From positions 1-47,103 of the forward strand of contig JAVJWO010000137.1 in assembly GCA_040222015.1 (NCBI GenBank): 47,103 nucleotides of DNA. Reading direction: 5' to 3'. Of the stretch, positions 3,694 through 34,543 are shown piece after piece. The stretch is from Coleofasciculus chthonoplastes F2-STO-03 (GTDB lineage Bacteria > Cyanobacteriota > Cyanobacteriia > Cyanobacteriales > Coleofasciculaceae). Position numbers and translations under genes: made by a program. Position 1 is the first letter of the stretch; each line of letters starts with the position of its first letter. The notes beneath the pieces were generated by a model. It did no database searches. It was not told the DNA's origin and saw only the letters and a program-made list of their open reading frames with translations.

Positions 3694-4317
3694 ATGTCCA
3701 AGACCAGAATTTTGCAAGAAGGACAATCTTATACCTTTCGTTCCTATTTTGAGATGCCCTACGAGGCAGAGGAAATTCTGGCTGAGTTTGATTATACTTT
3801 AGTGCGATCGCGTTTAGTTTTGCCAGTCAGCGATCGCCCCTTTCAGGGACTACCCGAATTGAAGCAGCGCTTGGAAGATGCGTTGTTGATAGTCAGCTTA
3901 AGTAGTGAAGCAGCACGACGGGAAGCTTTAGTATTTCCAGTATTGCTAGAAGTTGCCCGCTTTTGCCAGTGCCAGATTCGCATTGAGTATCCCTTAAACG
4001 TCAACAATTGGCTGAAAGGCACTTTAGACTACTTACTCCGTCGAGAACACAGCTTGTTAGTTATTGAAGCTAAAAATGATGACCTTTCTAGAGGGTTTAC
4101 TCAGTTGGCAGTGGAACTCATTGCTTTAGCGCAAGCCGAAGAAAAAGAGGTGCTGTATGGGGCTGTAACAATCGGCAATGTTTGGAATTTTGGCAAATTA
4201 GATGTTAAGGAATTAAAAATTAAGCAAGACATTACCCTTTATCGCGTTCCTGATGACTTAGAGCAACTTGCTCACATCCTTTTGGGAATTGTCGCTGGCG
4301 AATTGTCTGATGAATAA
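3694..4317 (+). CDS. Hypothetical protein, PD-(D/E)XK / HsdR N-terminal-like family
   Basis: SEAARRE.LV.PVL, GTLDYLL, LVIEAK, QLAVELIAL, YGAVTIG..W.F pattern. Confidence 0.7.
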   Translation: MSKTRILQEGQSYTFRSYFEMPYEAEEILAEFDYTLVRSRLVLPVSDRPFQGLPELKQRLEDALLIVSLSSEAARREALVFPVLLEVARFCQCQIRIEYPLNVNNWLKGTLDYLLRREHSLLVIEAKNDDLSRGFTQLAVELIALAQAEEKEVLYGAVTIGNVWNFGKLDVKELKIKQDITLYRVPDDLEQLAHILLGIVAGELSDE

Positions 4318-4570: not shown

Positions 4571-6481
4571 ATGTTAAGCCTCAAGCCACTCGGATTTTCC
4601 ATCGCGATCGCTACAGCGTTACTTTCTCTGAGCCTTGATAGTAAACCGATTCAAGCTCAATCCATAACACCTGCTGATGGGACAAATACCATCGTTACTC
4701 CCGATGGCAACCGTATCGATATTAGCGGCGGTATGTTGTCCGGAGATGGCAGCAATCTCTTCCACCACTTTCAGAAATTTGGCTTGAGTCAGGGGGAAAT
4801 TGCTAACTTCATCTCCAACCCAACAATTCGCAACATTTTGGCGGGAGTTGTCGGTGGGGAAGCGTCCCTGATTAATGGGCTGATTCATGTGACAGGGGGA
4901 AATTCTAACCTGTTTTTAATGAATCCGGCTGGAATTGTTTTTGGCAGTCAGGCGAGTTTAAATCTTCCAGCGGCTTTTACGGCGACGACAGCCAGCAGCA
5001 TTGGGTTTGACGGGGGTCAGTTTAATGCTGTGGGTGACAATAATTATCAAGCACTCATGGGTGATCCCAATGCCTTTTCCTTTGCCATGGAACAGCCAGG
5101 AAGCATTATTAATGCAGGTGATTTGGCTGTGGTTGAGGGGCAAAAGCTGACGGTTGTTGCGGGAAATGTGATTAATACAGGAACCTTCTCTGCACCTGGG
5201 GGAAAAATTAGCGTTGCGGCTGTACCCGGAACCAGTCAGGTGGTGATTAATCAAGAAAATATGGCATTGGGTTTAAAGCTGGATGTAGCCGATTTAAATG
5301 ATAATGGGATTGGTGATGTCTCTCCTGCAAGTCTGGCGCAGTTAGTCACAGGTGGAACTCTCATTCCAGCCACAGAAATTCAAGTTGATGATCAGGGTCA
5401 AGTCTGGTTAGCCGCTTCAAATCAGCCAATTCCTACAGAAACGGGAACCGCTGTTATTTCTGGAATGCTTGATGCTTCTGATAGTGGAACGGGGGGAACG
5501 GTTCAGCTTATCGGGCAACAATTAGATTTATATGATGCAAAAATTAAGAGTGGCACAGTATTACTTGAGGCGATAGGGGATATCTCTCTTGTTTCTGGAA
5601 CTATCGATGCTTCTGATACTATTAACTTTTCTGACGTTGGTGGCAACATAACGGTTACCACGACCAATGGAGAAGTTGCTCAGGGTAACATTAATATTGA
5701 TGATGACAGCATAGCTTTTTTTGTTAGTGATAATCAGGTAATTTTTGGGGACAATATTGTTAATGATCCGACGGCTTCTGACTCAGGTGGCAGTATAACT
5801 ATTACCGCTACTGATGAGATAACTACTAACGGGAATAATTCTAGCGATGGTGGCAGCATAACTATCACCAGTGATGGAGGAATTACCAACGGGAACGGTT
5901 CTAGTGGAGAGGAAACTCCTGACGGAAATTCTGGAGGGGAAATTGTTCTTGAACCCGGAATCAATACAGAGACTCCCAACACTGATTCTAATACTTCTGA
6001 AGAGACTCTGGAAACGGATACTGAAACCGTTGGCATCAATACGGTAAACTCTGAAATAGAGCCAAAAACGATTGAAGATGACATCGATTCCTCAGATTTA
6101 CTAATTACTCCAATTGTCAATCAAGCCGTTAATCCAGCCATACAATCGGTTAATAGCACCCCGCCAAGTCTTCCAGTCAAACTTCAGCCCAGCGAAGTTG
6201 ACCCTGTACTCGACTGGACAGGTAATATCGCACAAGATTCACTAAGGGCAAATAACTTCAGCCGAACTAGAGGAATAGAGACGCTGGCAAACACTCAACG
6301 CCACTGGAATAATTTTATGGAAGCGGTGAAAGCTGAAGATGCCAATGATATAACACGCCAACGGATATCTGATGCCGTCATTAATCATATGCAAACTAAT
6401 ATAGGACAAGAAATTAATCAAAGATATTGTTCTATCGCCAGAAATGGAGTTGATTGCGAAGAAGAAAAAGTAAAGCCCTGA
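4571..6481 (+). CDS. Filamentous haemagglutinin-family TpsA exoprotein (copy 1)
   Basis: Signal peptide ending IQAQ; TPS domain motifs NLFHHFQKFGL, NLFLMNPAGIVFG; ATG 4571 chosen by homology with copy 2 (ORF track starts 4523). Confidence 0.88.
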   Translation: MLSLKPLGFSIAIATALLSLSLDSKPIQAQSITPADGTNTIVTPDGNRIDISGGMLSGDGSNLFHHFQKFGLSQGEIANFISNPTIRNILAGVVGGEASLINGLIHVTGGNSNLFLMNPAGIVFGSQASLNLPAAFTATTASSIGFDGGQFNAVGDNNYQALMGDPNAFSFAMEQPGSIINAGDLAVVEGQKLTVVAGNVINTGTFSAPGGKISVAAVPGTSQVVINQENMALGLKLDVADLNDNGIGDVSPASLAQLVTGGTLIPATEIQVDDQGQVWLAASNQPIPTETGTAVISGMLDASDSGTGGTVQLIGQQLDLYDAKIKSGTVLLEAIGDISLVSGTIDASDTINFSDVGGNITVTTTNGEVAQGNINIDDDSIAFFVSDNQVIFGDNIVNDPTASDSGGSITITATDEITTNGNNSSDGGSITITSDGGITNGNGSSGEETPDGNSGGEIVLEPGINTETPNTDSNTSEETLETDTETVGINTVNSEIEPKTIEDDIDSSDLLITPIVNQAVNPAIQSVNSTPPSLPVKLQPSEVDPVLDWTGNIAQDSLRANNFSRTRGIETLANTQRHWNNFMEAVKAEDANDITRQRISDAVINHMQTNIGQEINQRYCSIARNGVDCEEEKVKP

Positions 6482-6539
6482 TGTTTTGTGGATAAATTGA
6501 TTTCTTCTAGAGTATTGATCAATAAAAAATCAATTTATT

Positions 6540-6608
6540 GTAGGGTGGGTTAGGCGGATACTTCATCAGGAAGATAACTTTTTAATCAGGTGTCCGCCGT
6601 AACCCACC
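6540..6608 (+). repeat. GTAG-type REP hairpin
   Basis: GTAG-GGTGGGTTAGGCGGA ... TCCGCCGTAACCCACC. Confidence 0.65.
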
Positions 6609-6629
6609 AATACTATCATTTACCCACAA

Positions 6630-6749
6630 TTAAGTAGAATGGGACTGAAATTTTGGCTGGTGGGTTTCGACTTCGCAAGGGTCCACCCTGCGGTATATCA
6701 AGGGTATCGGCAATGGAAAACTGCTTAATATCAGTGCCATTCCAGTTAA
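6630..6749. mobile_element. MITE-like element with 19-bp imperfect terminal inverted repeats
   Basis: TTAAGTAGAATGGGACTGA vs TCAGTGCCATTCCAGTTAA (16/19 complementary); related element at 36178-36277. Confidence 0.55.
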
Positions 6750-6788
6750 GTATAAGCCAGCCAGAATTTTCTGAGGTAAAAAATAATT

Positions 6789-7238
6789 ATGTGGCTACGT
6801 TATATTTCTGCAATCACAATCTTAGCTTTTACCCTAACTCCTGCTAACGCTTTAGCTGAATCCCAACCTATCCCACGCCAGTCGCAAGCCCAAAGGATAG
6901 AGACGTACACGCCGCCTGAACCCTCACAAATCGTAGAAGAATTAGGATTAACTGAGGAACAAATTGCCCAACTGAATCAAATCCGTCGCCAATTTACTCC
7001 CTTAATTGAACCTCTATACGAGGAATGGAACAAAGCACAACAAGAACTAGAAACATTAATCGTCAGCGCCGACGCCTCAGAAACTCAGGTGCGCCAAAAG
7101 TACGATGATGTTGAAGCGTTACGAGCGCGAATTTCCCAGTTGCAATTTGAGCGGAGAATGGCGATACGAGAGATATTAAAACCTGAGCAACGTCTTCCTT
7201 TTGAGGAATATATACAACGATTTGCGGATAACTTATAA
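6789..7238 (+). CDS. Spy/CpxP (LTXXQ) family periplasmic helical protein (copy 1)
   Basis: Signal peptide; LGLTEEQ and ILKPEQR motifs. Confidence 0.85.
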   Translation: MWLRYISAITILAFTLTPANALAESQPIPRQSQAQRIETYTPPEPSQIVEELGLTEEQIAQLNQIRRQFTPLIEPLYEEWNKAQQELETLIVSADASETQVRQKYDDVEALRARISQLQFERRMAIREILKPEQRLPFEEYIQRFADNL

Positions 7239-7306
7239 AAAGATGTGAGTTCTCAATGGGGAGAAGATGATTCGATTTTGAGGGAGATTATTTAGTTCTC
7301 TGTGTC

Positions 7307-7367
7307 AATCTGTGTCTCTCACGATTCAGTCTGCTGTCTGTGTCATCCTATCTGTGGAATCTGTGTT
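7307..7367. repeat. Dispersed ~60-bp repeat, second copy at 42372-42433
   Basis: AATCTGTGT...TCACGATT.AGTCT...GTGTCAT...AATCTGTGTT aligns with 42372-42433. Confidence 0.6.
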
Positions 7368-7839
7368 TTTGTCAATGCTTTGTAATAAATTTTATCGCAA
7401 CTTTAACGAAATACATGCGTCCACGGGGAGGTTGGGCGTGAGACGAAGACAACAAATTCAGCCAAATTTGACGAAAAATTTAGGGGTTTAGCTGTGTCAA
7501 GATTATTTTTGCCCACAAAACACCCACAATAGATAATATACCCGAAAATCGCACAACCATCTCACAATCGCTGCAACCCCTAAAAATTCGTGGATTTTTC
7601 CGAAAAAGGGGTACAAAACATGCAATTATGACGTTTTATTGAGATGTGCGACTGATTGGAAGATTTAAACCTTTTTGGACAAAAAAGTAGTTTTAATTAT
7701 CAAAGCTTGACAAATTTAGCCTAAACAAGACTGAGGAAAGCCAAGGAAATGTCTTGGCGATCGGGATCAGGCGGGAAAAACTTATGCTATTCTTAAATAG
7801 AACTAAATAGAATTAAATAGAATTATTGAGGAATGCAGG

Positions 7840-10341
7840 ATGTCACACCTCAAACCAATCGGATGTTCCATCGCGATCGCTACAGCTTTACTGTCTCTGA
7901 GCATGGATAGTAAACCGATTCAAGCTCAATCCATCACACCTGCTGATGGGACAAATACCATCGTTACTCCCGACGGCAACCGTATTGATATTAGCGGCGG
8001 TTCGCTGTCCGGAGATGGGGGCAATCTCTTCCACCGCTTTGAGCAATTTGGCGTGAGTCAAGGAGAAATAGCCAACTTCCTCTCCAACCCAAAAATTCGC
8101 AACATTTTGGCGGGAGTTGTCGGTGGGGAAGCGTCCCTGATTAATGGGCTGATTCAGGTGACAGGGGGAAATTCTAACCTGTTTTTAATGAATCCGGCTG
8201 GAATTGTTTTTGGCACTCAGGCGAGTTTAAATGTTCCGGCGGCTTTTACGGCGACGACAGCCAGCAGTATTGGGTTTGACGGGGGTCAGTTTAATGCTGT
8301 GGGTGACAATAATTATCAAGCACTCATGGGTTCTCCCAATGCCTTTTCCTTTGCCATGGAACAGCCAGGAAGCATTATTAATGCAGGTGATTTGGCTGTG
8401 GGTGAGGGGCAAGGTTTGACGGTTGTTGCTGGAGCCGTAATCAATACAGGGACGTTTTCTGCACCAGGGGGAACGATTACTGTTGCCTCTGTACCCGGAA
8501 CCAGTCAGGTGGTGATTAACCAAGAAAATATGGCGCTGGGTTTAAAGCTGGATGTAGCCGATTTAGATGATAACGGAGTTGGCAACATTTCACCAGCAAG
8601 TCTAGGACAGTTGGTGACGGGTGGGGATGTAGTTCCAGCAACAGAAATTAAAGTTGAAGAGGGTCAAGTCTGGTTAACCGCTTCAAATCAGCCAATTCCG
8701 ACAGAAACGGGAACGACGATTGTTTCTGGCAATATTGATACGGCTAGCAGTGAAACTGGGGGAACGGTTCACATTTTAGGGCAGCGTGTAGGTTTGGTTG
8801 ATGCAGAAATTGATGCTTCGGGTAGTAATGGCGGTGGGACGGTTTTAGTCGGTGGTGACTATCAGGGTCAAGGTGAAGTTTTCAATGCTCAACGGACTTT
8901 TGTTAATCAGAATTCCACGATTCAAGCGGATGCGTTGACTAATAACGGTGGCGGAACTGTCGTGCTTTGGGCAGATGATACTACTCAGTTTTTTGGTGAT
9001 ATCAGCAGCCGTGGTGGTTCAGTGGCTGGAGATGGGGGGTTTGTTGAGGTATCAGGGAAGGAGAATTTAGATTTTGAGGGGACAGTTGATACCAGTGCAA
9101 TTAATGGAGAAGGTGGAACGTTACTACTTGACCCAACTGATATCACAATTACGGCTGGGGGGACGCCTGGTGGGTTTAGCGGTCAGGTAATGTTTGCTGA
9201 TGCAGAACCGACAACAATTAGCGAGAATCAGTTAGAAACTTTGTCAGGTAATACTAATGTCCTGTTGCAGGCGGATAATACGATTACCATTGAGCCGATG
9301 CAAAACAGGGTGCTGTCGTTTCAGCGAGGTAGTGGGTCAATTACCTTTGAGGCAGGTGGCGCTTTTACAATGGCACAGAGTGATACCCTCAACGCTAATG
9401 GCAGAGACTTGACGATTTCTGCTGCTAGTATCACGGCTGGCAATATTAATCCTTTATTCGGTGTTGGCGGAGGCTTTGTTAGTTTAACCGCTACGAATGG
9501 CGGAATTTTGGCGAGAAATGTCAATACGGGTACTGGGGAGGGCGGTGAAATTAACCTCAGTGCTACCAATGGTGACATTACTATCGCCGACTCTGTTAGT
9601 TCACAAACGCTTAATAATAGGACAGGAGGCGATGTTATCATTAATGTGACTGGCGGCAGATTCAGTTCCAGAACCATCGTATCGCCCGCTGCTGGAAATG
9701 GGGGAAGTGGGGGTGATGTTACTGTCAATGCTACTGACGGTATTACAGTCAGAGACCTAATAGATGCTAAGGGGGGTTCTGGTTTCGACCCCAACCGCAA
9801 TGGAACTATTACCCTCAATGGTGTTGTCCTCAATGATTCCACGGTCAGAGATATTAATACATCCGGCACTTCTGGAATCGACACTGGAACTCCTGGAACT
9901 AATACAGGCACTACCGGAAGTCCCGGAACTAATACAGGAAATCCCGGAACTAATACAGGCACTGGCACAACAATCATTGGAGACAACGGCGTAATCGTCA
10001 AGATCGGTTCTACTGGTTCGCGGGCTGGCTTTAGAAATTCGTCAAGCACTAATGGTATTACTTATCAGGATTGGCGTCAGGGTGTAGCTAATTGGCTGCG
10101 CCAACACGATAGGTCAATGAAGGCTCGCTATGAAAGAAAGCGAGAACAGCGAGCCAGGAGACACATGAATTACTCTGATTTATACAGCCAAGAGGTGGAA
10201 TATAACGCTGGATGGAGTCAATACTACGCGGAAATGGGTGACGCTGAATCTGCTGCTTATTACGGGCAACAGGCAAGTGATTCCAGCCAATATGCTGCTG
10301 ACGAAGAGCGTGCCGCAAGGCGAATACGAAGAGGTTTGTAG
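7840..10341 (+). CDS. Filamentous haemagglutinin-family TpsA exoprotein (copy 2)
   Basis: Signal peptide; TPS domain; VLVGGDYQGQG, GGFVEVSGK, GTLLLDP repeats typical of cyanobacterial FHA-like proteins; PGTNTG linker repeats. Confidence 0.9.
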   Translation: MSHLKPIGCSIAIATALLSLSMDSKPIQAQSITPADGTNTIVTPDGNRIDISGGSLSGDGGNLFHRFEQFGVSQGEIANFLSNPKIRNILAGVVGGEASLINGLIQVTGGNSNLFLMNPAGIVFGTQASLNVPAAFTATTASSIGFDGGQFNAVGDNNYQALMGSPNAFSFAMEQPGSIINAGDLAVGEGQGLTVVAGAVINTGTFSAPGGTITVASVPGTSQVVINQENMALGLKLDVADLDDNGVGNISPASLGQLVTGGDVVPATEIKVEEGQVWLTASNQPIPTETGTTIVSGNIDTASSETGGTVHILGQRVGLVDAEIDASGSNGGGTVLVGGDYQGQGEVFNAQRTFVNQNSTIQADALTNNGGGTVVLWADDTTQFFGDISSRGGSVAGDGGFVEVSGKENLDFEGTVDTSAINGEGGTLLLDPTDITITAGGTPGGFSGQVMFADAEPTTISENQLETLSGNTNVLLQADNTITIEPMQNRVLSFQRGSGSITFEAGGAFTMAQSDTLNANGRDLTISAASITAGNINPLFGVGGGFVSLTATNGGILARNVNTGTGEGGEINLSATNGDITIADSVSSQTLNNRTGGDVIINVTGGRFSSRTIVSPAAGNGGSGGDVTVNATDGITVRDLIDAKGGSGFDPNRNGTITLNGVVLNDSTVRDINTSGTSGIDTGTPGTNTGTTGSPGTNTGNPGTNTGTGTTIIGDNGVIVKIGSTGSRAGFRNSSSTNGITYQDWRQGVANWLRQHDRSMKARYERKREQRARRHMNYSDLYSQEVEYNAGWSQYYAEMGDAESAAYYGQQASDSSQYAADEERAARRIRRGL

Positions 10342-10471
10342 TTACATCGTGAGAGTGGCTCTAAATCAGATTTAAAATAGCAACTCTTGCTGGACAAACT
10401 GTTTAGCTGCATCCGTTGTCGAGAATCAGTTAGATTGGTCATATTTAAATTTTTTTCAGGAGGTAACTTCG

Positions 10472-10912
10472 ATGATACTGCCTCGTACTCTAGTTTGGGC
10501 AATGTTAGGATTTTCTCTGTGTGGTATCAATGTTGTTCTTAGCTCAACCCCTTTGTCTGCTCAGACTTTGGCACAAACAATACAAGGGGAGGAACCTGAG
10601 CGACTCCCCCCTGAACCGATTCCTATTATGCAGGAATTCGATCTTAGTCGAGAGCAGTTTGAGCAATTAGCAGCAATTCGCAACCGATATAGAGAGCAAA
10701 TTATCCAAACTGATGAAGAACTCTATCAAGCAGAACAAGAATTAGAAGAGTTAATGGGAAGTCCAACGGCTACGGAAAGTGAAGTTCGTGAAAAGTTTCG
10801 TCAAGTTGAATTGCTGCGACAAAGACTTGCTGAATTAACGTTTGAAAGTAGTCTAGAAATGCGCTCTGTACTCCGACCTGATCAGCGTCGCGCTTTTTTA
10901 GAACGATTTTAA
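10472..10912 (+). CDS. Spy/CpxP (LTXXQ) family periplasmic helical protein (copy 2)
   Basis: Signal peptide; DLSREQ and VLRPDQR motifs; AGGAGG RBS upstream. Confidence 0.85.
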   Translation: MILPRTLVWAMLGFSLCGINVVLSSTPLSAQTLAQTIQGEEPERLPPEPIPIMQEFDLSREQFEQLAAIRNRYREQIIQTDEELYQAEQELEELMGSPTATESEVREKFRQVELLRQRLAELTFESSLEMRSVLRPDQRRAFLERF

Positions 10913-10986
10913 GTTTTGATGTTTATCAAGCTGAAAAACTAGGTGCAATATCTGTCTAACTCAAGACAGGGTGTAAGAGGAGTGAG

Positions 10987-12750
10987 ATGATACAAACTAA
11001 ATTATTAGTCATTGGGGGGATTACCCTGATTTCAACACTTGAACAGGGTTACGCTTTGGCTAATCCTCCCCTAACTTTACCAGAACCTACCGAACATTTT
11101 CCTACCTTTGATTTCGCCCAACAACCTAACCCCAACGAAGACCGATTTCTCCAACCTACTCCCGAACCTATTCCTTCTGAACCAACAGAAACCGACCCAG
11201 TTTTACCAACCCCTGAAGAACCCGTTCAACCGCCCCCAACTGAATCAACCGAAACAACAATTGATGTTAACACTATCGAAGTTGTAGGGAGTACCGTTTT
11301 TAGTGCAGAGGAGTTCAATCCGATTATTCAACCCTTAGAAGGACGCACTGTTACCATAAATGAACTTCAGGATGCCACGGATGCGATCGCGCAACTTTAT
11401 CGTGATGCTGGATACTTTACCTCAACGGCGATTTTACCGCAACAGAATGTAACCGATGGTGTTGTTACCATTCAGGTGATTGAAGGGCGTTTAGCAGACA
11501 TTCAGATAGAAAGAACTGAACGACTGAAGCCAAGCTACATCCGTAAACGGGTTCAATCAGCAGTCACTACTCCCCTGCGTATTGATACACTAGAAGAGCA
11601 ATTGCGATTGCTGAGAACCAGTCCCCTTTTTGACACCCTAAACGCCACCTTAGAAGCAGGTACGGAAGTCGGTGAGAGTATTCTTGTGGTGCGAGTTGAA
11701 GAGGAAAATCCGTTCTTTGGAAATGTCAGTGTTGATAACTATTCTCCCCCTAGCATTGGTTCAGAACGCTTAGGCGTCCAACTCGGTTATCGGAATCTGA
11801 TTGGAATTGGCGATACGCTTTCCGGTTCCTATTACCGTTCCACAACGGGCGGTTCTAATTTGTTTGATTTTAGCTATCAGGTTCCCCTGAATGCAAAAGA
11901 CGGAACGCTACAACTGCGTACCGTTATTGACAGAAATGAAATTACCGAAGAACTCTTTGATGAACTCAATATCGAAGGGGAAACCGAACTCTATGAAATC
12001 AGCTTCCGTCAACCCTTAATTCGTACCCTACGCCAAGAATTTGCCCTGTCTTTAGGGTTTAGTTATCGAGACGGTCAAACCTTTATTTTTGATCGCCTAC
12101 CCACTCCCTTTGGGATTGGACCCGATGAAGATGGCGTGAGTCGCACCAGTGTCTTCCGCTTTGGACAAGACTACGTGAAACGGGATATCCAGGGCGCATG
12201 GAGTCTGCGATCGCAGTTTAACATTGGTACCGATTTCTTTGACGCTACGACCAATGATGCACCAATTCCAGATAGTCGCTTTTTTAGCTGGTTTGGTCAA
12301 GTGCAACGCACACAAATATTGGGCAATAATCATCTATTAATTATTGCGGCTAACTTACAACTTACCCCCGATTCTCTCCTGGCTTCTGAGCAATTTGTAA
12401 TCGGTGGCGGACAAACGCTGCGCGGGTACAGGCAAAATGTACGTTCTGGTGACAATGGGTTTCGCGTTTCGATTGAAGATCGGATTACACTGGAGAGAAA
12501 TGAAACTGGATTACCGACGTTTCAACTTGCACCTTTTGTTGATGTAGGGGCGGTGTGGAATCATCCCGATAATCCCAATGATCAACCCGATCAGACGTTT
12601 TTAGCTAGTTTAGGATTAGGTGTACTTTGGGAACCTATCCCTAACTTAAATATCCGCCTCGACTATGGGATTCCTTTTGTGGATTTGGATGATCGGAGAG
12701 AAAACGCTCAAGATGAGGGATTTCATTTTAGTGTAGACTATCAGTTTTAA
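10987..12750 (+). CDS. ShlB/FhaC/HecB family TpsB outer-membrane transporter
   Basis: POTRA motif LYRDAGYFTS.A.LP.Q, loop-6 motif IGGGQTLRGY, C-terminal DYQF. Confidence 0.93.
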   Translation: MIQTKLLVIGGITLISTLEQGYALANPPLTLPEPTEHFPTFDFAQQPNPNEDRFLQPTPEPIPSEPTETDPVLPTPEEPVQPPPTESTETTIDVNTIEVVGSTVFSAEEFNPIIQPLEGRTVTINELQDATDAIAQLYRDAGYFTSTAILPQQNVTDGVVTIQVIEGRLADIQIERTERLKPSYIRKRVQSAVTTPLRIDTLEEQLRLLRTSPLFDTLNATLEAGTEVGESILVVRVEEENPFFGNVSVDNYSPPSIGSERLGVQLGYRNLIGIGDTLSGSYYRSTTGGSNLFDFSYQVPLNAKDGTLQLRTVIDRNEITEELFDELNIEGETELYEISFRQPLIRTLRQEFALSLGFSYRDGQTFIFDRLPTPFGIGPDEDGVSRTSVFRFGQDYVKRDIQGAWSLRSQFNIGTDFFDATTNDAPIPDSRFFSWFGQVQRTQILGNNHLLIIAANLQLTPDSLLASEQFVIGGGQTLRGYRQNVRSGDNGFRVSIEDRITLERNETGLPTFQLAPFVDVGAVWNHPDNPNDQPDQTFLASLGLGVLWEPIPNLNIRLDYGIPFVDLDDRRENAQDEGFHFSVDYQF

Positions 12751-12880: not shown

Positions 12881-13073
12881 CTAAATCTGGGTTTTCTACC
12901 TCCGTTATAATTCAGTCCGCGCAGGCGGACTTAGTTTGTATAGCAGCGATTTCAATCGCCATGGCAAAAGGGAGTCAGCTAAATCTGGGTTTTCTACCTC
13001 CGTTATAATTCAGTCCGCGCAGGCGGACTTAGTTTGTATAGCAGCGATTTCAATCGCCATGGCAAAAGGGAGT
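12881..13073. repeat. Exact tandem duplication of 95 bp (12881-12975, 12979-13073) containing a REP-like double hairpin
   Basis: Both copies read CTAAATCTGGG...AGTCCGCGCAGGCGGACT...GCGATTTCAATCGC...GGGAGT. Confidence 0.9.
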
Positions 13074-23909: not shown

Positions 23910-25766
23910 ATGATCTTGCCAAAACGTGAGTTCATTAATCCTGCTCTTAAGAGTCAAATAACGCACTCGTCCAAAAATTTTCCAGAAAATTACACCAGCT
24001 TTTCCACATTGGTGGAACTTTTGCGCCACAGAAGCGCTACACAGCCACAGGGAAAGGCTTTCACGTTCCTAGGAGACGGGAAAACCGAGTTAGCGAGTTT
24101 AACCTATCAAGAATTAGATCAGTGCAGTTGTGCGATCGCGCAAGCACTAAGCCGTCAGTTTTCTGCTGGTGCGAGGGCGTTGCTGCTGTATCCACCAGGG
24201 TTGGAATTCATTACCGCTTTCTTTGGCTGTTTGTATGCCGGAGTTGTCGCGGTTCCCGCTTATCCACCCAAGCGCAATCAGAATCTGTTACGGTTGCAGG
24301 CGATCGCCAAAGATGCTCAAGCCCAAGTCGCGCTGACGAGTGCTTCCTTATTGGGGACGATCAAACGTCAGTTTGAGCAGAATTCAGAATTGGCAAGGCT
24401 GAACTGTCTGGCTACCGACACCTTGGTGGAGAGTGAAAATTTTACTCCTGATCCAGCCACACCAGAAACTCTGGCTTTTCTTCAATACACTTCGGGTTCG
24501 ACGGGAACACCCAAGGGTGTGATGGTGAGTCATGGCAACCTGATGCGTAATTCCGAGTATATGCACCAGATTTGGGGGTTCACGTCAAAAAGCGTCATGG
24601 TAACCTGGCTGCCGATGTTCCATGATATGGGATTGATTTATGGAATTCTTCAGCCCTTGTATCATGGGTTTCCCTGTTACCTGATCGCACCGACTTCCTT
24701 TATGCAAAAACCGATTGGCTGGCTTGAGGCAATTTCTCACTACAAAGCCACTCATAGTGCTGCTCCTAATTTTGCCTACGAACTTTGTGTTCGCAAGATC
24801 ACTCCCGAACAACGCGCCACCTTGGATTTGAGTAGCTTGCAAATGACGTTAAACGGTGCTGAGCCAGTCAGAGCAGACACTCTAAAACGGTTTACTGAAG
24901 CGTTTAAACCCTGCGGTTTTGAACTAGCCACCTTTTGTCCCGGTTACGGTTTAGCTGAAGCGACGTTATTCGTGGCTGCAGTGCAACACCAAAAAGTGCC
25001 GAGGTTTTACACAGTTCAGGCAGAAGCACTGGCACAGAATCAGGTAATAGAGGGTAAAAGTGAGGAGAAAGTACAAACTTTTGTAAGTCAAGGACAGCCG
25101 GGAATTGATATCAAAGTCGTCATCGTTCATCCCGAATCATTCACTCAATGTTTGCCAACAGAGGTTGGCGAAATTTGGGTTTCTGGCTCTGGTGTTGCTC
25201 AAGGATACTGGCAGCGAACCGAGGAAACCCAGCAAACGTTTGCGGCTTATTTGGCAGATACAAAAGAAGGACCATTTCTACGCACGGGAGATCTGGGTTT
25301 TATCAAAGATGGCGAGTTATTTATTACGGGTAGGCTTAAGGATGTAATTATCATTCGCGGTCAAAACCACTATCCTCAAGATATTGAAGCCACAGTGGAA
25401 CAGAGCCACCCAGCACTCAGAATGGGTTGTGGCGCCGCTTTTACAGTAGAAGTCAACAATGAAGAGCGCATTGTCGTCGTTCAGGAAGTCGAGCGCACCT
25501 TCCGGCGGACGTTGGATGTGGAGAAGGTGGTGAGAGCGATACGCAAGGCTGTGGTGCAGCAACACGAATTGCACGTTTATGCAATAGCACTGATTAAGAC
25601 AGGAAGTATTCCCAAAACTTCTAGTGGCAAGATTCAGCGCCGTACTTGTCGGGTAAAATTTTTAGAGGGAACGTTGGATGTATTGGCTTCAAGTCATGGA
25701 CATAGAGAATTACCCAAACAGGATAGTGTAAGCGACAAGCCACTTACTAAAGTTGATTCATCTTAG
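23910..25766 (+). CDS. Fatty acyl-AMP ligase (FAAL)
   Basis: YPPGLEFITAFFGCLYAGVVAVPAYPP, LAFLQYTSGSTGTPKG, YGLAEATL plus FAAL-type insertion, IPKTSSGKIQR. Confidence 0.93.
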   Translation: MILPKREFINPALKSQITHSSKNFPENYTSFSTLVELLRHRSATQPQGKAFTFLGDGKTELASLTYQELDQCSCAIAQALSRQFSAGARALLLYPPGLEFITAFFGCLYAGVVAVPAYPPKRNQNLLRLQAIAKDAQAQVALTSASLLGTIKRQFEQNSELARLNCLATDTLVESENFTPDPATPETLAFLQYTSGSTGTPKGVMVSHGNLMRNSEYMHQIWGFTSKSVMVTWLPMFHDMGLIYGILQPLYHGFPCYLIAPTSFMQKPIGWLEAISHYKATHSAAPNFAYELCVRKITPEQRATLDLSSLQMTLNGAEPVRADTLKRFTEAFKPCGFELATFCPGYGLAEATLFVAAVQHQKVPRFYTVQAEALAQNQVIEGKSEEKVQTFVSQGQPGIDIKVVIVHPESFTQCLPTEVGEIWVSGSGVAQGYWQRTEETQQTFAAYLADTKEGPFLRTGDLGFIKDGELFITGRLKDVIIIRGQNHYPQDIEATVEQSHPALRMGCGAAFTVEVNNEERIVVVQEVERTFRRTLDVEKVVRAIRKAVVQQHELHVYAIALIKTGSIPKTSSGKIQRRTCRVKFLEGTLDVLASSHGHRELPKQDSVSDKPLTKVDSS

Positions 25767-25841
25767 GTTGTTTGTGAGTTTAATATGGAAGTGTTTAGAC
25801 TTAAGTGATTGGTTTAAATTAAAAAGGAGTCAATTGACCCA

Positions 25842-26108
25842 ATGCGTACAGAAACAGAAAATAACAAAAAAGTCCTCTCGGCTACTGAAATTCAAAACTG
25901 GTTAGTTTCTTATATGGCAGAACTCATGGAGGTTGATCACGATGAAATTGATATTAAGGTTCCATTCGATGAATATGGGCTAGATTCTTCAATGTCCGTA
26001 ACGATGGTAGCCGACTTAGAGGCATGGCTAGGACGTACTCTCGAACCAACCCTAATCTATGATTACCCAACCCTTGAAAAGTTAGCTCGGCACGTCAGCC
26101 AGGTTTGA
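25842..26108 (+). CDS. Stand-alone acyl carrier protein
   Basis: YGLDS phosphopantetheine motif; YDYPTLEKLA. Confidence 0.93.
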   Translation: MRTETENNKKVLSATEIQNWLVSYMAELMEVDHDEIDIKVPFDEYGLDSSMSVTMVADLEAWLGRTLEPTLIYDYPTLEKLARHVSQV

Positions 26109-26184
26109 GCGTTTGGCAAACTAACCGTTAGCATTAAGTAGGGTTTTGATTGATATTTAAAATTGAAGTGCTCGATTAAACCTA

Positions 26185-27567
26185 ATGAAAGAACAGATCA
26201 TGATGGATAATACCCAAATACCTGATACCAAAAAGCAACCGTCCAGCAAGGCGAGAAAGCGTCATCTCAAAGTCAATGAAATCAACTATAGCAACAACCT
26301 TGAGTCTGACTACACAGAAAAAATAGAAGCGCTGGAAAAAAGCTTTGATTATGCTAGCAACAGCACTTGTTATTGGAGTAAACCAGAATTGTCAATTTTC
26401 TATGGTACTCCACTTTATCAAGGGGCTTCAGAATCCCAAAAGCTGGCTCTCAATCACTTATATTGGGGTGCCCATTATGACCATACGGCTGCTTCTGAAG
26501 CGAATACCATCCATTATAATCAAGTCACCGCAGGCGTTTTTTCCCAAATTAGTGATGACTATGAAGCACTGTGCTTAAATCTGAAGCACGAAGCCGAGCA
26601 AGAAAAATACCACATTCACGCTTTTCACAACATTGGTTATAAGACGAAAACAGCGTTGTTGGGAAAGCGAGTTATGAGGATGAAACTCAATAATAATTCT
26701 CGTTACAACAAAAGTGGCAAATTGCCAGAGATTGTTAAATCCCGTTTAGGCTCATCAAATTTTCAATATAATAGTTTGCGCTACTTAAGCAAAGTGATGC
26801 TGAGCAGCGAAACCTATCGTTACTCTCAATATTTGCAGGATTTCGACAAAAAAGGAGAGTCTTTAACGGCTCTAACTAAAGGTTATGTTGGGGGAAGTAT
26901 CCCCCAGACTTTGGTACAGTTTTTCACCTTTTGTTGGGGTAGTTCGCCTTTCCTAGCCTGCCAGTATTATGCCTACCGCTATGCGGGAAATGCGGTTTTA
27001 AAAAATTACGAGTATGAATACTCTGAGTATTTCAGAAAGTTAGAAAAAGATAGCAAATGTACTTCAGTTCCACCAGCCGTTTCCCATTATCATTTTTTAG
27101 ATGAATCTTTCCATACCACAACGTCACAGATAATTGCTCGAGATATGTACAAAGACTTTGGTAAGCCAACAACGAGCGAGAAAGTCATTGCTAACTTGAT
27201 ATTTTACCTGATGCAACGTGGCTTTTTAGGGGGGATTGCTAGTAGCTTAATCGGTTCATTTAGGGATGAATCCTCGCTCATGCCCCTGTACTACAGAATC
27301 CTACGCTCTCCAGTATTTGATATGTCTGCCCAAGACGCGCTCCACTGGATGGAAAAATGTTTGTGCCATGAACATGAAGGTTTTCATCTGCAAACAAAGT
27401 ATCATCAACGAGCCATGAAAAATATTGGTCAGCTTGCCAGTAGTCTTGACTACCTGTGGCCCATAAACCGTGAAATGCGAATAATGGCATCAGGAGGCTC
27501 GATTAGTAAGGCAATTGAAAGTAACGTCAAGGCACTCAAGCAGTTCTCCCAGATAGCGGTTGTATAA
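26185..27567 (+). CDS. CylC-type dimetal-carboxylate halogenase (AurF-like fold)
   Basis: HTAASEANT..YNQVT, EAEQEKYHIHAF, WGSSPFLACQYY, HYHFLDESFHTTTSQ; follows FAAL-ACP as in cylABC. Confidence 0.82.
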   Translation: MKEQIMMDNTQIPDTKKQPSSKARKRHLKVNEINYSNNLESDYTEKIEALEKSFDYASNSTCYWSKPELSIFYGTPLYQGASESQKLALNHLYWGAHYDHTAASEANTIHYNQVTAGVFSQISDDYEALCLNLKHEAEQEKYHIHAFHNIGYKTKTALLGKRVMRMKLNNNSRYNKSGKLPEIVKSRLGSSNFQYNSLRYLSKVMLSSETYRYSQYLQDFDKKGESLTALTKGYVGGSIPQTLVQFFTFCWGSSPFLACQYYAYRYAGNAVLKNYEYEYSEYFRKLEKDSKCTSVPPAVSHYHFLDESFHTTTSQIIARDMYKDFGKPTTSEKVIANLIFYLMQRGFLGGIASSLIGSFRDESSLMPLYYRILRSPVFDMSAQDALHWMEKCLCHEHEGFHLQTKYHQRAMKNIGQLASSLDYLWPINREMRIMASGGSISKAIESNVKALKQFSQIAVV

Positions 27568-27580
27568 GTAGAAGTTCTAA

Positions 27581-30500
27581 ATGGAACCCGTAGCAATTGT
27601 AGGCATAGGCTGTCGCTTTCCAGGAGCGAACGACCCAGAAGCGTTCTGGCAGTTGTTGCGTGAAGGAGTGGATGCGATCGCAGAAGTTCCCTCCCAGCGA
27701 TGGAATATTGATCGGTTTTACGATTCCCACCCCGCCACACCTGAAAAAATGTATACTCGCTGGGGGGGATTTTTAGACCAAATCGATCAATTCGATCCCA
27801 GTTTTTTCAAAATTTCACCCCGCGAGGCACAGTACCTAGACCCCCAACAAAGACTTCTTTTAGAGGTTGCTTGGGAAGCGTTAGAAAATGCCGCCATTGT
27901 TCCCGAAAACTTAGCAGGCAGCCAAACTGGAGTTTTTATCGGCATCGGCAACTTTGACTACCACAGGTTAATATACAACGATTTATCCAGGATCAACGCC
28001 TACAGTAGCACGGGAACCAGTCCCTCGATTTCTGCCAACCGTCTATCTTACCTGTTGGATCTGCAAGGTCCAAGTATGGCAGTCGATACAGCTTGCTCTT
28101 CATCCCTAGTCGCCGTTCACCTAGCTTGCCAGAGTTTACAAAATCAGGAGTCTAACCTCTGCTTAGTCGGAGGCGTGAACCTGATCCTGTCTCCAGAACC
28201 AACGATTGGCTTGTCTCAAGCCCGAATGATGTCAGCCGACGGGCGCTGCCAAACCTTTGATGCTAGCGCTGACGGATATGTTCGCGGAGAGGGGTGTGCG
28301 GTAGTTGTTCTCAAGCCCCTGAGCAATGCACTGGAGGATGGAGACAGAATACTGGCAATTATTAGAGGTTCGGCGGTTAACCAAGATGGACAAAGCAATG
28401 GCATCACCGCCCCCAATAGTCCGGCTCAGCAGGCAGTTATCCGCAAAGCCCTGGCAAATGCCAAAGTGCAACCCGCCCAGATTAGCTATGTCGAAGCCCA
28501 CGGTACAGGCACATCCTTGGGAGATCCGATTGAGGTTAAATCCCTCAAAGCTGTGCTGAGTCAGGGGCGTTCCACCGATCAACCCTGTTGGATGGGGTCA
28601 GTTAAAACCAATATCGGTCATTTAGAAGCCGCTGCTGGAATTGCCGGGTTGATCAAGGTGGTTCTGTCTTTACACCATCAAGAAATCCCCCCCCATCTGC
28701 ATCTGAAGACACTCAATCCCTACATTTCTATAGAAGGGACGCCATTTGCCATTCCGAAAGAGCGCCAGCCTTGGTTTGTTGGCACAGAACCCCGCTTAGC
28801 AGGCATCAGTTCCTTTGGCTTCGGCGGCACGAATAGCCATGTCATTGTAGAAGAAGCACCCTTTGAAGAGATGGGGAGATGGGGAAATGGGGAGATGGGG
28901 AGAGTTTTGCTGACGAACTCCCCAACAGTCCAAGATTCTATCAACACAGAACGTTCCTTCCACCTTTTAAGTCTTTCGGCAAAAAGTGAGCAGGCGCTGC
29001 AACAGTTGGCATATCGTTATCAAGATTTTCTAATCGCTCAGGAGCAAATATCACTGGCAGATGTTTGCTTTACCGCGAATACGGGGCGATCGCATTTTAC
29101 CCACCGCCTTGCCCTAGTAGCACAATCAACCCAACAGTTGCGCGAACAACTTAATGCTTTCGCCACGGGAAAGGAAACGGCTGGTAATGTCAGCGGACAA
29201 ATACGAAGTAGGAAACTTCCGAAGATAGCGTTTTTATTCACAGGGCAGGGTTCCCAGTATGTTGGTATGGGACGCGAACTCTATCAAACCCAGCCCACTT
29301 TCCGAAAAACCCTCGACTACTGTGCTGAAATTCTACATCCCTATCTGGAAAAGCCTCTACTGAGTGTCCTGTATCCTGAACCTGGGGACACATCACCTCT
29401 GGATGAAACCGCCTACGCCCAACCCGCCTTGTTTGCCCTAGAATATGCCCTATTTGAGTTGTGGAAATCCTGGGGTATAGAACCCTCAGTCGTCATGGGT
29501 CATAGTGTGGGTGAATATGTGGCTGCCTGTGTGGCTGGTGTATTTAGCTTAGAAGATGGCTTGAGGTTAATGCAAGAGCGGGGGCGTTTAATGCAATCCT
29601 TGTCGCCCGATGGGGAAATGGTGGCAGTATTTGCTGATTATGCCCAAGTTAAAGATGCCATTCAACCCTATGCTCAGCAGGTGGCAATTGCCGCGATTAA
29701 CGGGGCTGAAACGATGGTGATTTCTGGAGAGCATGAGGCAGTGGGAGACGCGATCGCCATTTTATCAGCAGCCGGAGTGAAGACGAAACGGTTGAATGTT
29801 TCCCGTGCCTTTCATTCCCCGTTAATGGAACCCATACTGGCAGAGTTTGAGCAGGTGGCAAGAGACATTACCTATTCATCTGCCCAAATCAAGGTAATTT
29901 CTAATCTGACTGGGGAAGTCGCCACCGATGAAATCGCTACTCCTGACTATTGGTGTCGCCATATTCGGCAGCCCGTCCGATTTGCGGCGGGTATGGAAAC
30001 GATTTATCGTGACGATTATCAGCTTTTTATAGAATGTGGACCCCAGCCAACTTTACTGGGGATGGGGCGCCGCTGCTTGCCCGAATCAGCAGGACATTGG
30101 CTACCCAGTTTGCGTCAAGGGCAATCAGATTGGCAGCAAATGCTCCAGAGTTGTGCCACGTTGTATGTGAATGGGATACCGATAGATTGGTCAGGTTTTC
30201 ACCGGGATTATGCCCATCGTCGTCTCCAACTACCCACCTATCCATTCCAGCGATCGCGCTTCTGGTTTGAGAGGATAGCAGATCAACCCAGCCAGGAGAA
30301 GCCAGAAGCCTCCCAACGTTGGCAAACTGTAGTAGCTGCGAGTACCTACCAAGCTCAAACCGGACCCTTTGATTTGGAACTCCACACCTATCAAGCCAAG
30401 TTAGAGTCATACGACTCCCTGACGACGGCTTATGTTCTCACTGCCTTGCAAAACTTAGGCATTTATCGCCAAGCTGGGGAACGGCATTCCGTAGAAACGT

Positions 30501-32680: not shown

Positions 32681-32708
32681 ACAAACATTAGTGGAGAACG
32701 TTAACGCC

Positions 32709-33137
32709 ATGAGTAAACCCAATCAATTTATAGGAACTTGGCGATTGATATCATGCGAAATTAGGGATTCAGAGGGTCAGGTCAGCTACCCATTTGGAGA
32801 AGATGCCCTTGGCTTCCTGATTTACACGGATGATGGATATATGTCTGGAACGCTGACGAGAGCCAATCGTCCCCACTTTGCCGCCGGAGATATTTTGGGA
32901 GGAACACTGGAGGAACAGGCAATGGCAACTCAGACTTACCTCGCCTATTGCGGTCGGTATGAGATTCAAGATAACAAAGTGATTCATCATGTTGAAACCA
33001 GCCTGTTTCCTAATTGGGTTGGTGTAGATCAAGCCCGCTTCTTTGAATTTAAGGAAGGCAAGTTGGTATTAAGTACACCTCCGATTTTAGCCAGTGGCAA
33101 GGAATCTGTTGGTTACCTAATCTGGGAGCATGTTTGA
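32709..33137 (+). CDS. Lipocalin-like domain protein
   Basis: FIGTWRLIS, GFLIYTDDGYMS, YLAYCGRY, SLFPNWVG; ATG 32709 (track GTG 32691). Confidence 0.85.
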   Translation: MSKPNQFIGTWRLISCEIRDSEGQVSYPFGEDALGFLIYTDDGYMSGTLTRANRPHFAAGDILGGTLEEQAMATQTYLAYCGRYEIQDNKVIHHVETSLFPNWVGVDQARFFEFKEGKLVLSTPPILASGKESVGYLIWEHV

Positions 33138-33181
33138 AGCTAAATGATTACGACGACTTTTTTTTAGGAGCTCAGTGACAA

Positions 33182-34543
33182 ATGACTATACCCTTACAGA
33201 TTCGTCCCGGATTTGACTTTGATGAAGCTATATTAATGGCTCAGTTTACGAAGCAAGCCTACGAACTTTTCCAGTATGATGACGGCAGCATCGAAGACAC
33301 AGAACTCAAAGAAATCTACAACTCTATTCATCGAAATCAAGGCTGGAGGTTTGTCCACAGCATCCGCAACGATCAAACAAATGTCCGAGGATTTATCCTC
33401 AAAAACCCTGGAGCTAATCAGTATGTGTTAGTTTTTCGAGGTTCCATCGTCACAGATAGAGGCAGTTTAGAACTCACGGATCTTCTAATTAGCGACACAA
33501 ACTGGGAATTAGTCAGCTACGGTGCTATGGCTGATCCGAGAATTAAAGTATCGGAAGGATTTTTTGAAGCCTTTGAATCTGTCTCAGATCAGGTCGAAAT
33601 TTTCTTTAAGACGTTACTGGGGCGGCTCACCAAAAGAGACTTTATTCGCATTGAAGGGTTGACTCCCGAAAGGCAATTTGCCTGCGCGATGGCGATGGCT
33701 GATGCTGGGGCAATTCGACTCAGTAATGAGTTTGAGCAGCAAGCCAGAACGTTAATACTCAACGTTGTTGCCGATGGGGAAATTGGGAATAATGAGGAAT
33801 TGATAGAAGTTTTAGAATTTAAGAAACAGAATTTATTAGCCCTGGAAACCTTGACCGAGCCAGTAGAAGTTTACGTGACGGGTCATAGTTTGGGTGGGTG
33901 TTTAGCCAACCTTGGTGCCTTGGCGCTGCGGCGTTACTTTGGTTCAATGGTTGATTCAGGACTGGCAATAAAAGTCTACACGATTGGAGCGCCTAAGATA
34001 GGCAATCAGAACTTTGTCAACTATTACAATGAACAAATTGGTGAGGGGTTGAGCCATCGCGTGGAAAACCTATTGGATGTTATGGGACCTGTACTCCCTC
34101 CTTCACCGCCTTTCCCTTTAAATGTTTTGGCTCCCAACGGTTTGCGAATTGGCAATTTTTCTCTAGCTAATTATGCAGCCGTAGGGGAAGTGCATACTTT
34201 AATTGGCTTGGGATCTCAGAATGTCTCCCTGGATTTTGGCGGTGCGATAGAATTCTTGGGTGGTATTCCTTTTCCCCACAGCTTCGATGCCTATATTCAG
34301 TTGCTCAAAGAAGATCAGCAGCGCTGGTATCAATTCTCTCTACCGATCAAGAATATCCTGGCTCCGTTTTTCAAGGAACTGCTGCAAGAGCAAGTTGAAG
34401 AAATCGCCGACCGTTTTAAGGTTTCAAATCAAGCTTTAGCAGACCAAATTATAGAGTCAATACACAGTATGAAGAATGGGCAAGGAATTGCACAAGATTC
34501 TAAGGAGTCAGAGATTGATATGAGCAGGGATTCGGTGAAGTAG
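33182..34543 (+). CDS. Class 3 lipase-like alpha/beta hydrolase
   Basis: LVFRGS, VSEGFFEAF, VYVTGHSLGG nucleophile elbow, YTIGAPKIGN, late PHS. Confidence 0.85.
   Translation: MTIPLQIRPGFDFDEAILMAQFTKQAYELFQYDDGSIEDTELKEIYNSIHRNQGWRFVHSIRNDQTNVRGFILKNPGANQYVLVFRGSIVTDRGSLELTDLLISDTNWELVSYGAMADPRIKVSEGFFEAFESVSDQVEIFFKTLLGRLTKRDFIRIEGLTPERQFACAMAMADAGAIRLSNEFEQQARTLILNVVADGEIGNNEELIEVLEFKKQNLLALETLTEPVEVYVTGHSLGGCLANLGALALRRYFGSMVDSGLAIKVYTIGAPKIGNQNFVNYYNEQIGEGLSHRVENLLDVMGPVLPPSPPFPLNVLAPNGLRIGNFSLANYAAVGEVHTLIGLGSQNVSLDFGGAIEFLGGIPFPHSFDAYIQLLKEDQQRWYQFSLPIKNILAPFFKELLQEQVEEIADRFKVSNQALADQIIESIHSMKNGQGIAQDSKESEIDMSRDSVK

Follow-up and report, generated by a model that had tools for sequence, protein, structure and literature searches.

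Variable TpsA tips paired with Spy/CpxP-family genes in a tandem two-partner secretion locus of Coleofasciculus chthonoplastes

The window analysed here is the whole 47,103-nucleotide stretch of contig JAVJWO010000137.1 (assembly GCA_040222015.1) from the cyanobacterium Coleofasciculus chthonoplastes F2-STO-03. It carries a two-partner secretion (TPS) locus in which each of two tpsA genes is followed by a gene of the Spy/CpxP family and a single tpsB gene stands at the end. The locus raises the question of why a chaperone-like gene stands behind each TpsA tip, and whether it belongs to that tip. Our comparisons suggest that the TpsA tip and the adjacent Spy-like gene form part of a mobile cassette traded between strains as one block. 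As the best reading of the pairing, put forward tentatively, we propose that the Spy-like protein escorts its own tip through the periplasm and that the tip belongs to a contact filament which varies between strains. All genes of the locus lie on the + strand in the order tpsA1-spy1-tpsA2-spy2-tpsB, with the following features.

4571-6481, + strand: tpsA1 (A1), 636 aa; signal peptide, TPS domain at aa 32-234, short beta-rich stalk, acidic Thr/Glu/Asp/Gly linker and type-I tip.
6161-6478, + strand: tip type I; three helices predicted at a pLDDT of 51 (low confidence), with a Cys-X8-Cys pair at the end.
6789-7238, + strand: spy1 (S1), 149 aa; Spy/CpxP (LTXXQ) family, signal peptide, partner of tip I.
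7840-10341, + strand: tpsA2 (A2), 833 aa; signal peptide, TPS domain at aa 32-237, beta-rich stalk, Gly/Thr/Pro/Asn repeat linker and type-II tip.
9863-9963, + strand: Gly/Thr/Pro/Asn linker repeats ahead of tip II, in short tandem copies.
10003-10020, + strand: IGSTGS boundary motif ahead of tip II.
10060-10338, + strand: tip type II; rich in Tyr and Trp and predicted to form a long hairpin of two helices (pLDDT 93), in which the first arm is basic and variable and the turn is conserved.
10472-10912, + strand: spy2 (S2), 146 aa; Spy/CpxP family, signal peptide, partner of tip II.
10949-10986, + strand: 3' edge of the swapped block, just 5' of tpsB.
10987-12750, + strand: tpsB, 587 aa; POTRA and ShlB/FhaC barrel, shared outer-membrane transporter.

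For A1 we used the ATG that lines up with the start of A2, in a frame that opens further upstream at a GTG (4523), and signal peptides were assigned by eye. Both TpsA proteins matched the TPS domain PF05860 above cut-off (A1, E 3e-38; A2, E 2e-39), as they did TIGR01901, and Pfam placed POTRA_2 (PF08479) and ShlB (PF03865) domains in TpsB. With a TPS domain after the signal peptide and a linked TpsB, A1, A2 and TpsB count by sequence as a two-partner (type Vb) secretion system. S1 and S2 matched LTXXQ/Metal_resist (PF07813/PF13801), S2 lying below the LTXXQ cut-off and above that of Metal_resist. S1 and S2 appear to be small secreted helical Spy/CpxP proteins with two LTXXQ-type motifs, LTEEQ/LKPEQ in S1 and LSREQ/LRPDQ in S2, and the two are 37% identical.

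Open reading frames (ORFs) and Pfam matches agree with the initial annotation on two TpsA genes, each with its own diverged signal-peptide Spy/CpxP gene, and one TpsB; the 3269-bp offset that it gave between the TpsA genes is correct, and the absence of CHAT that it reported was borne out by a Pfam scan of 28 window proteins, none of which matched the domain. Its description of the TpsA genes as near-identical over the first 0.9 kb and unrelated thereafter was too strong in both halves. The two genes share 90% of their DNA positions in the first 300 nt and 85.9% across the 1062 nt that align, protein identity is 84% across the first 325 aa, and the stalks keep patchy similarity up to about residue 430; only the tips are unrelated (hhalign probability 0.1% for tip I vs tip II). 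The Spy genes, said to follow directly, do lie next downstream of their TpsAs; S1 is separated from A1 by 307 bp that contain high-copy repeats, and S2 from A2 by 130 bp.

Misassembly is an unlikely source of the tandem, because a contig from a separate DNA run spans 7038-7902, from the 3' half of S1 to the start of A2, so that the seam exists beyond this assembly, and because a 7,777,372-bp contig represented in a protein collection encodes an A2-type protein, an S2-identical protein and an S1-cluster protein (presence only, without gene order). Single type-I cassettes were found in G036, G017 and G021, and a single type-II cassette, with Spy 97% and TpsB 95% identical to those of the window, at the metagenome locus L096. 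The window contains two cassette types that are single elsewhere, joined in tandem with one common TpsB.

Cassette tips fell into types I (A1 of the window genome, G036, G017), Ib (G018), II (A2 of the window genome, L096), III (G016, G018, G022) and IV (G019, G023, L095), among which homology was detectable only between I and Ib (hhalign 74.6%, E 3e-5). Spy identity followed these types, at 89-98% within a type, 74% for I vs Ib and 33-53% otherwise, and consecutive accession numbers gave two further pairs, tip II with an S2-cluster Spy and tip I with an S1-cluster Spy. Between A2 of the window and G019 the TPS domain is 91% identical (synonymous divergence, dS, 0.24) and TpsB 96% (dS 0.15), while the tips cannot be aligned and the Spy core is 44% identical with saturated dS. 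The flanks were likewise close and the middle replaced when G018a was compared with A2 and with G019. Across tip types, therefore, tip and Spy diverge (Spy 35-52% identical) even where TpsB remains 95-96% and the TPS domain 91-96% identical, which indicates that tip and Spy are swapped as one block. DNA homology resumed at 10949-10957 in 4/4 cassettes whose TpsB is close to that of the window but whose Spy is of a different type (G017, G018, G019, G036). The co-variation of tip and partner anticipated by the initial annotation was found throughout, each tip type having its own Spy type, and by these alignments tip and Spy appear to be exchanged between strains as a block, as in contact-dependent growth inhibition (CDI).

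Type-III cassettes are diverged throughout (TpsB 65%) and for this reason appear to be a separate lineage, not a swap. Comparison of the window with G036 gave dS values of 1.07-1.63 for five flanking genes (5/5), 0.42 for TpsB, 0.16 for tip I and 0.19 for Spy1. Since tip and Spy lie far below the flanking genes, the tip I/Spy1 block appears to have crossed lineages recently. A loose IGSTGS-like motif precedes the tip in 10/14 cassette TpsAs, of tip types I, Ib, II and III; A1, both type-IV TpsAs and the G021 copy, which is truncated, lack it. No VENN/ELYN motif was found ahead of the window's tips.

The tips are 85-130 aa long and, in AlphaFold2 models of types I and II, helical where folded. 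The two-helix hairpin of tip II reached its pLDDT of 93 in a fold that scores high easily. The Cys-X8-Cys pair was present at the end of 7/7 type-I tips aligned. None of the tips gave a Pfam match above cut-off or a PADLOC match, and none had a strongly hydrophobic segment (best 19-residue hydropathy <=1.46). Foldseek with the tip II model returned nothing at E<=0.001 and only generic hairpins (best E 0.21), the ESM Atlas held no usable match for either window tip, and no relative of tip II was found in 400 other genomes of the phylum. Against 1.84 billion representatives, tip II had 11 matches at E<=0.001: one cassette TpsA, an Allocoleopsis protein and nine weak ones. Six of the nine were inspected (five TPR proteins and one repeat protein), and these matches were set aside as generic helix likeness. 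Family-level tip searches added just weak unrelated matches (L167, L168, L171).

Within types, the ratio of nonsynonymous to synonymous divergence (dN/dS) was 0.63, 1.02, 0.59 and 1.99 for tips, 0.16-0.34 for Spy (4/4 pairs) and 0.11-0.14 for TpsB, and the pooled difference between tip and Spy had p 4e-5. The Spy partner is under purifying selection and tip change is near-neutral (pooled tip pN 0.131 vs pS 0.136, dN/dS about 1). Positive selection on the tips was considered and dropped (best pair dN/dS 1.99, p 0.08; pooled p 0.91). Change in tip II is concentrated in the basic first arm, and the turn and second helix are conserved; this half is kept in 5/5 type-II tips and in the Allocoleopsis protein.

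The Allocoleopsis record (L089:266-2730) holds a 647-aa secreted protein that is not of the TPS kind and has no Pfam or NCBIfam match, followed by a Spy gene. The protein ends in Trp/Ser/Asp-rich repeats homologous to tip II (hhalign 97%, E 1e-10). Because a non-TPS protein with a tip-II homologue also precedes a Spy gene, this single case suggests that Spy follows the tip. The Allocoleopsis tip has a charge of -13 and a basic Spy, whereas tip II of the window is at +2 with Spy2 at -8, and this inversion is a hint from one case. The Allocoleopsis genome also retains a Spy linked to an extracytoplasmic function (ECF) sigma factor, besides the second Spy behind the 647-aa protein.

Among solved structures, those of Spy (E 1e-7) and ZraP (E 0.003) were matched by the profile of the family. 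Net charge is -7 over the last 105 aa of S1 and -8 in S2; cassette Spys as a group are acidic (-7 to -10), and the median of 53 ECF-linked relatives is +4.

The 7.7-Mb genome to which the window belongs has 42 TPS matches, 7 TpsB and 68 CHAT matches. Over the N-terminal 325 aa, 23 paralogues show 46-63% identity to A1 and A2; 18 of them are complete, all with a fused CHAT domain, and five are cut by contig ends. Because the homologues, when complete, all carry fused CHAT, A1 and A2 appear to be CHAT-less members of the genome's TPS-CHAT clade, and the domain would have been lost from their ancestor. A Spy gene was near none of the 41 other TPS-matching ORFs (43 in total), which argues that the need for Spy is not general to TPS stalks. 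A third LTXXQ gene, distant from S1 and S2, is located elsewhere in the genome. The 43 TPS ORFs form two groups, the 18 with fused CHAT and others that share an 'EAQGW...C'-type C-terminus, often beside a separate CHAT gene. The idea that the tips are remnants of TPS-CHAT paralogues was abandoned after no tip match was found among this genome's ORFs.

How widely is the pairing distributed? S1 had matches in 46/52 genomes of the family, including 7/8 genus relatives. The order tpsA-spy-tpsB was present in 8/8 genus loci fetched and once in G036, of a neighbouring genus; the cassettes occupy six different neighbourhoods and are whole or broken in 7/8 genus relatives, with broken copies in G017 and G021 (2/8 genus copies) and none in G020. 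A Spy profile search gave matches in 116/401 genomes of the phylum and no Spy relative in viral contigs. For context, the 30 best loci were fetched together with 18 regions picked individually, and in many of these the flanks reached just 1.5 kb. Among 93 distinct Spy ORFs in the whole set of fetched loci, 11 were TPS-linked, 55 followed an ECF sigma or anti-sigma gene, 4 preceded UPF0227 only, 22 had other contexts and 1 followed the non-TPS protein with the tip-II homologue. None of the 82 sampled outside the Coleofasciculus-type set adjoined a TPS gene, a sampled count that is no proof of absence. The adjacency that the initial annotation expected to be conserved is conserved, yet narrowly: every case among the loci examined comes from a Coleofasciculus-type genome or a similar metagenome contig. 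A quick tree of 90 Spys (three fragments dropped) placed the 11 TPS-linked ones on one side of a branch with support 89 (unstarred) and long inner branches.

The ECF context is itself a conserved cyanobacterial operon (L043 and 54 other ORF contexts) of a PRK12518-type ECF sigma, a single-pass anti-sigma candidate of ~115 aa without NCBIfam match, Spy/CpxP and often a UPF0227 hydrolase; we presume that it resembles CnrYXH. Its anti-sigma was found in 0/9 genus genomes, where the search had no positive control, though a profile from the same alignment readily found it in the fetched loci. Spy/LTXXQ domains also occur at the C-terminus of 325-392-aa proteins (L141:6673-12840 in G058, and similar in G141, G376, G064 and G242); the single protein scanned is a DUF3747 fusion, and G058 has three copies in a cluster. 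The metagenome Spy P0007 (42% identical to S1 over the alignment) lies outside the sampled types and may mark a further tip type.

Two kinds of non-coding repeat lie within the locus.

6508-6751, no strand: repetitive extragenic palindromic (REP)-like high-copy intergenic repeats in the tpsA1-spy1 gap, with <=45 overlapping genome matches.
7245-7753, no strand: dispersed non-coding element of ~500 bp, with copies in the genome, at the seam of the two cassettes.

The element at the seam has eight other long copies in the genome (74-80% identical) and copies in 8/8 genus relatives. They stand between unrelated genes, and one runs into a 188-aa ORF on C28; the element has no Rfam match and is possibly a transposon end or a leader. 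Rfam gave nothing above gathering score, and promoter and terminator scans gave chance-level results. Downstream, at 12881-13073, is an exact tandem duplication of a 95-nt hairpin-containing unit, part of a high-copy repeat with about 95 overlapping genome matches. Upstream, the ORF at 3694-4317 belongs to the PD-(D/E)xK family (PADLOC PD_DExK, E 6e-27; about 20 paralogues) and was probably inserted independently, because it is missing at this position in G017. A biosynthetic cluster at 23910-34543 comprises an AMP-binding enzyme, an AurF-like protein, a type I polyketide synthase (KS-AT-MT-ACP-TE), a lipocalin-like protein and a class 3 lipase.

How could tip and Spy work together? TPS proteins are exported by Sec and then threaded through TpsB, led by the N-terminal TPS domain. 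Since export starts at that end, the C-terminal tip would be the last part left in the periplasm, and since TpsA and Spy each have a signal peptide, the tip can encounter its partner in the periplasm of the producer. There the Spy-like protein likely binds its own tip as a dedicated escort. A Spy dimer may keep the helical tip soluble and protected, and then either hand it on for export or retain it so that the filament stays anchored. Each strain would display a filament bearing its own contact tip, which may serve strain-specific adhesion or recognition in mats. Such a cassette could have originated when a TPS-CHAT gene lost CHAT and recruited a Spy of the ECF sigma/anti-sigma operon kind. 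In the parts of PMC5422565 available to us, TPS substrates cross the periplasm and TpsB recognises the N-terminal TPS domain, filamentous haemagglutinin (FHA) uses DegP as a holding chaperone, and the disulfide-bonded C-terminus of HMW1/HxuA stays in the periplasm as an anchor.

Several points weigh against an escort. Co-inheritance of neighbouring genes gives equal co-variation, and linkage alone could explain the pattern. Polymorphism would be hard to account for in a tip kept in the periplasm, and the Cys pair is absent from types Ib, II, III and IV, which have no cysteines. Fast evolution is not unique to the tip, because the distal stalk and linker are relaxed too (dN/dS 0.5-0.8), and it is not shown by these data to be adaptive. 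In the tree, the Spy from Allocoleopsis does not group with the TPS-linked ones. According to the available part of PMC8144458, Spy is a periplasmic, cradle-shaped dimeric chaperone with a basic client-binding face; the cassette Spys, acidic in whole-domain charge, may be unlike E. coli Spy in this respect, and salt adaptation could explain their acidity. Contigs from two RNA libraries cover relatives of A2-S2-B, and contigs cannot show transcription.

The initial annotation had considered the tips as toxins and their partners as immunity proteins. A CDI-like system, in which the tip is delivered into the periplasm or membrane of a neighbouring cell and does harm there, with the cognate Spy-like protein serving as antidote in the periplasm, seems to us rather unlikely. 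In its favour, the A-small gene-B order is that of Burkholderia bcpAIB, and the portion of PMC5422565 at hand gives variable cassettes of tip and immunity gene, marked by a boundary motif, as hallmarks of CDI. Block exchange, cross-lineage transfer, a boundary motif in 10/14 TpsAs, absence from G020 and broken copies in G017 and G021 all fit conflict systems, and horizontal spread of the tip and Spy block suggests selection on block identity. These likenesses are set against tips of just 85-130 aa with no toxin family or fold (no Pfam match above cut-off, no PADLOC match and, for tip II, no Foldseek match at E<=0.001), without a strongly hydrophobic segment (19-residue hydropathy <=1.46) and with a pooled dN/dS of about 1, unlike a catalytic domain. 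The complete TpsAs have 562-878 aa, whereas CdiA is given as 180-650 kDa in the same portion of PMC5422565, and the unrelated tips are all served by one homologous family of secreted partners. LTXXQ, CpxP and Spy were not found in the part searched of the polymorphic-toxin survey PMC3482391, whose supplements may bear on the point. The tip may still be an unknown small toxin. A broader form of the idea is possible, if doubtful: short TPS filaments would deliver small helical tips to neighbours, and Spy/CpxP proteins would have been repurposed as tip-specific periplasmic antidotes or receptors, swapped as cassettes, to give mat-forming filamentous cyanobacteria a compact self/non-self system.

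The fourfold diversification of Spy also bears on whether it is simply a general periplasmic chaperone for the filament or TpsB, with the tips as near-neutral leftovers after CHAT loss and the co-variation as linkage in a recombining block, an explanation that we regard as unlikely. It does not account for the presence in one genus of four Spy types that are deeply diverged yet each conserved within type, for two Spy copies in the window, for the lack of a nearby Spy at the other 41 TPS-matching ORFs or for the conserved half of tip II. In its favour, E. coli Spy binds many clients (available part of PMC8144458), tip pN equals pS with the distal stalk relaxed too, and 2/8 genus copies of the cassette are broken. 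As the anti-sigma of the ECF operon was found in none of the nine genus genomes, a general role may have passed to the cassette Spy. That same absence, together with the lack of a signalling gene in the cassette, makes kin sensing without killing very improbable, that is, a released or delivered tip acting as ligand and the Spy-like protein as periplasmic receptor for a matching neighbour tip. Spy could plausibly take part in sensing within the ECF sigma/anti-sigma operon, where 55/93 Spy ORFs sit, and tip Ib weakly resembles the anti-sigma C-terminal motif (hhalign 9.6%, E 0.003); the likeness was not significant for pooled tips (probability 1.6%), and mimicry of the anti-sigma periplasmic helix by the tips was rejected as a candidate.

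The locus shares features with several known systems. As in CDI (CdiBAI; Burkholderia BcpAIOB), there is a TpsA/TpsB pair with a variable C-terminal tip, a small cognate gene behind it and the A-small gene-B order; tip and small gene appear to be exchanged together, and an IGSTGS-like sequence, a possible boundary motif, precedes the tip in 10/14 TpsAs, though not in A1. Unlike CDI, the cassette TpsAs are several-fold shorter and have no VENN/ELYN motif, the tips are helical where folded and without toxin match where CdiA has a toxic C-terminus of about 300 aa, the partners are secreted and all of one family, and what the window has in addition is no orphan tip but a second pair of full-length genes. 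Judged on sequence, we would class the locus as a TPS family member with a CDI-like layout and not as CDI. From cyanobacterial TPS-CHAT proteins (FHA-like with CHAT), which A1 and A2 resemble over their N-terminal 325 aa, they differ in having a small helical tip in place of CHAT, followed by a Spy gene and a dedicated TpsB. The partners resemble Spy/CpxP/ZraP in their LTXXQ, Metal_resist and solved-structure profile matches, yet they are acidic, lie inside a secretion cassette and have diversified into tip-linked types; the usual home of this Spy subfamily is the ECF operon with its PRK12518-type sigma, whereas the cassette Spy follows a TpsA tip. The Cys pair of tip I resembles the periplasmic disulfide anchor of HMW1/HxuA, although the other cassette tip types lack cysteines and the part of the literature on HMW1/HxuA at hand mentions no accessory periplasmic partner. 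No description of a TPS-LTXXQ/Spy arrangement was found in the open-access literature, subscription papers lying outside that scope.

Should the pairing reflect linkage alone, the interest of the locus would be modest, as that of an accessory adhesin cassette. Should Spy bind its cognate tip, a family of chaperones known for broad specificity would have evolved client-specific types inside a secretion cassette, and two-partner secretion would gain a new accessory part. The four natural tip/partner types provide a ready matrix of cognate and non-cognate pairs. A swappable surface tip is a concrete, testable candidate for how the filaments of this mat-building cyanobacterium adhere to, exclude or recognise one another, and this unusual pairing of a tip with a chaperone-like gene could underlie strain-specific cell contact.

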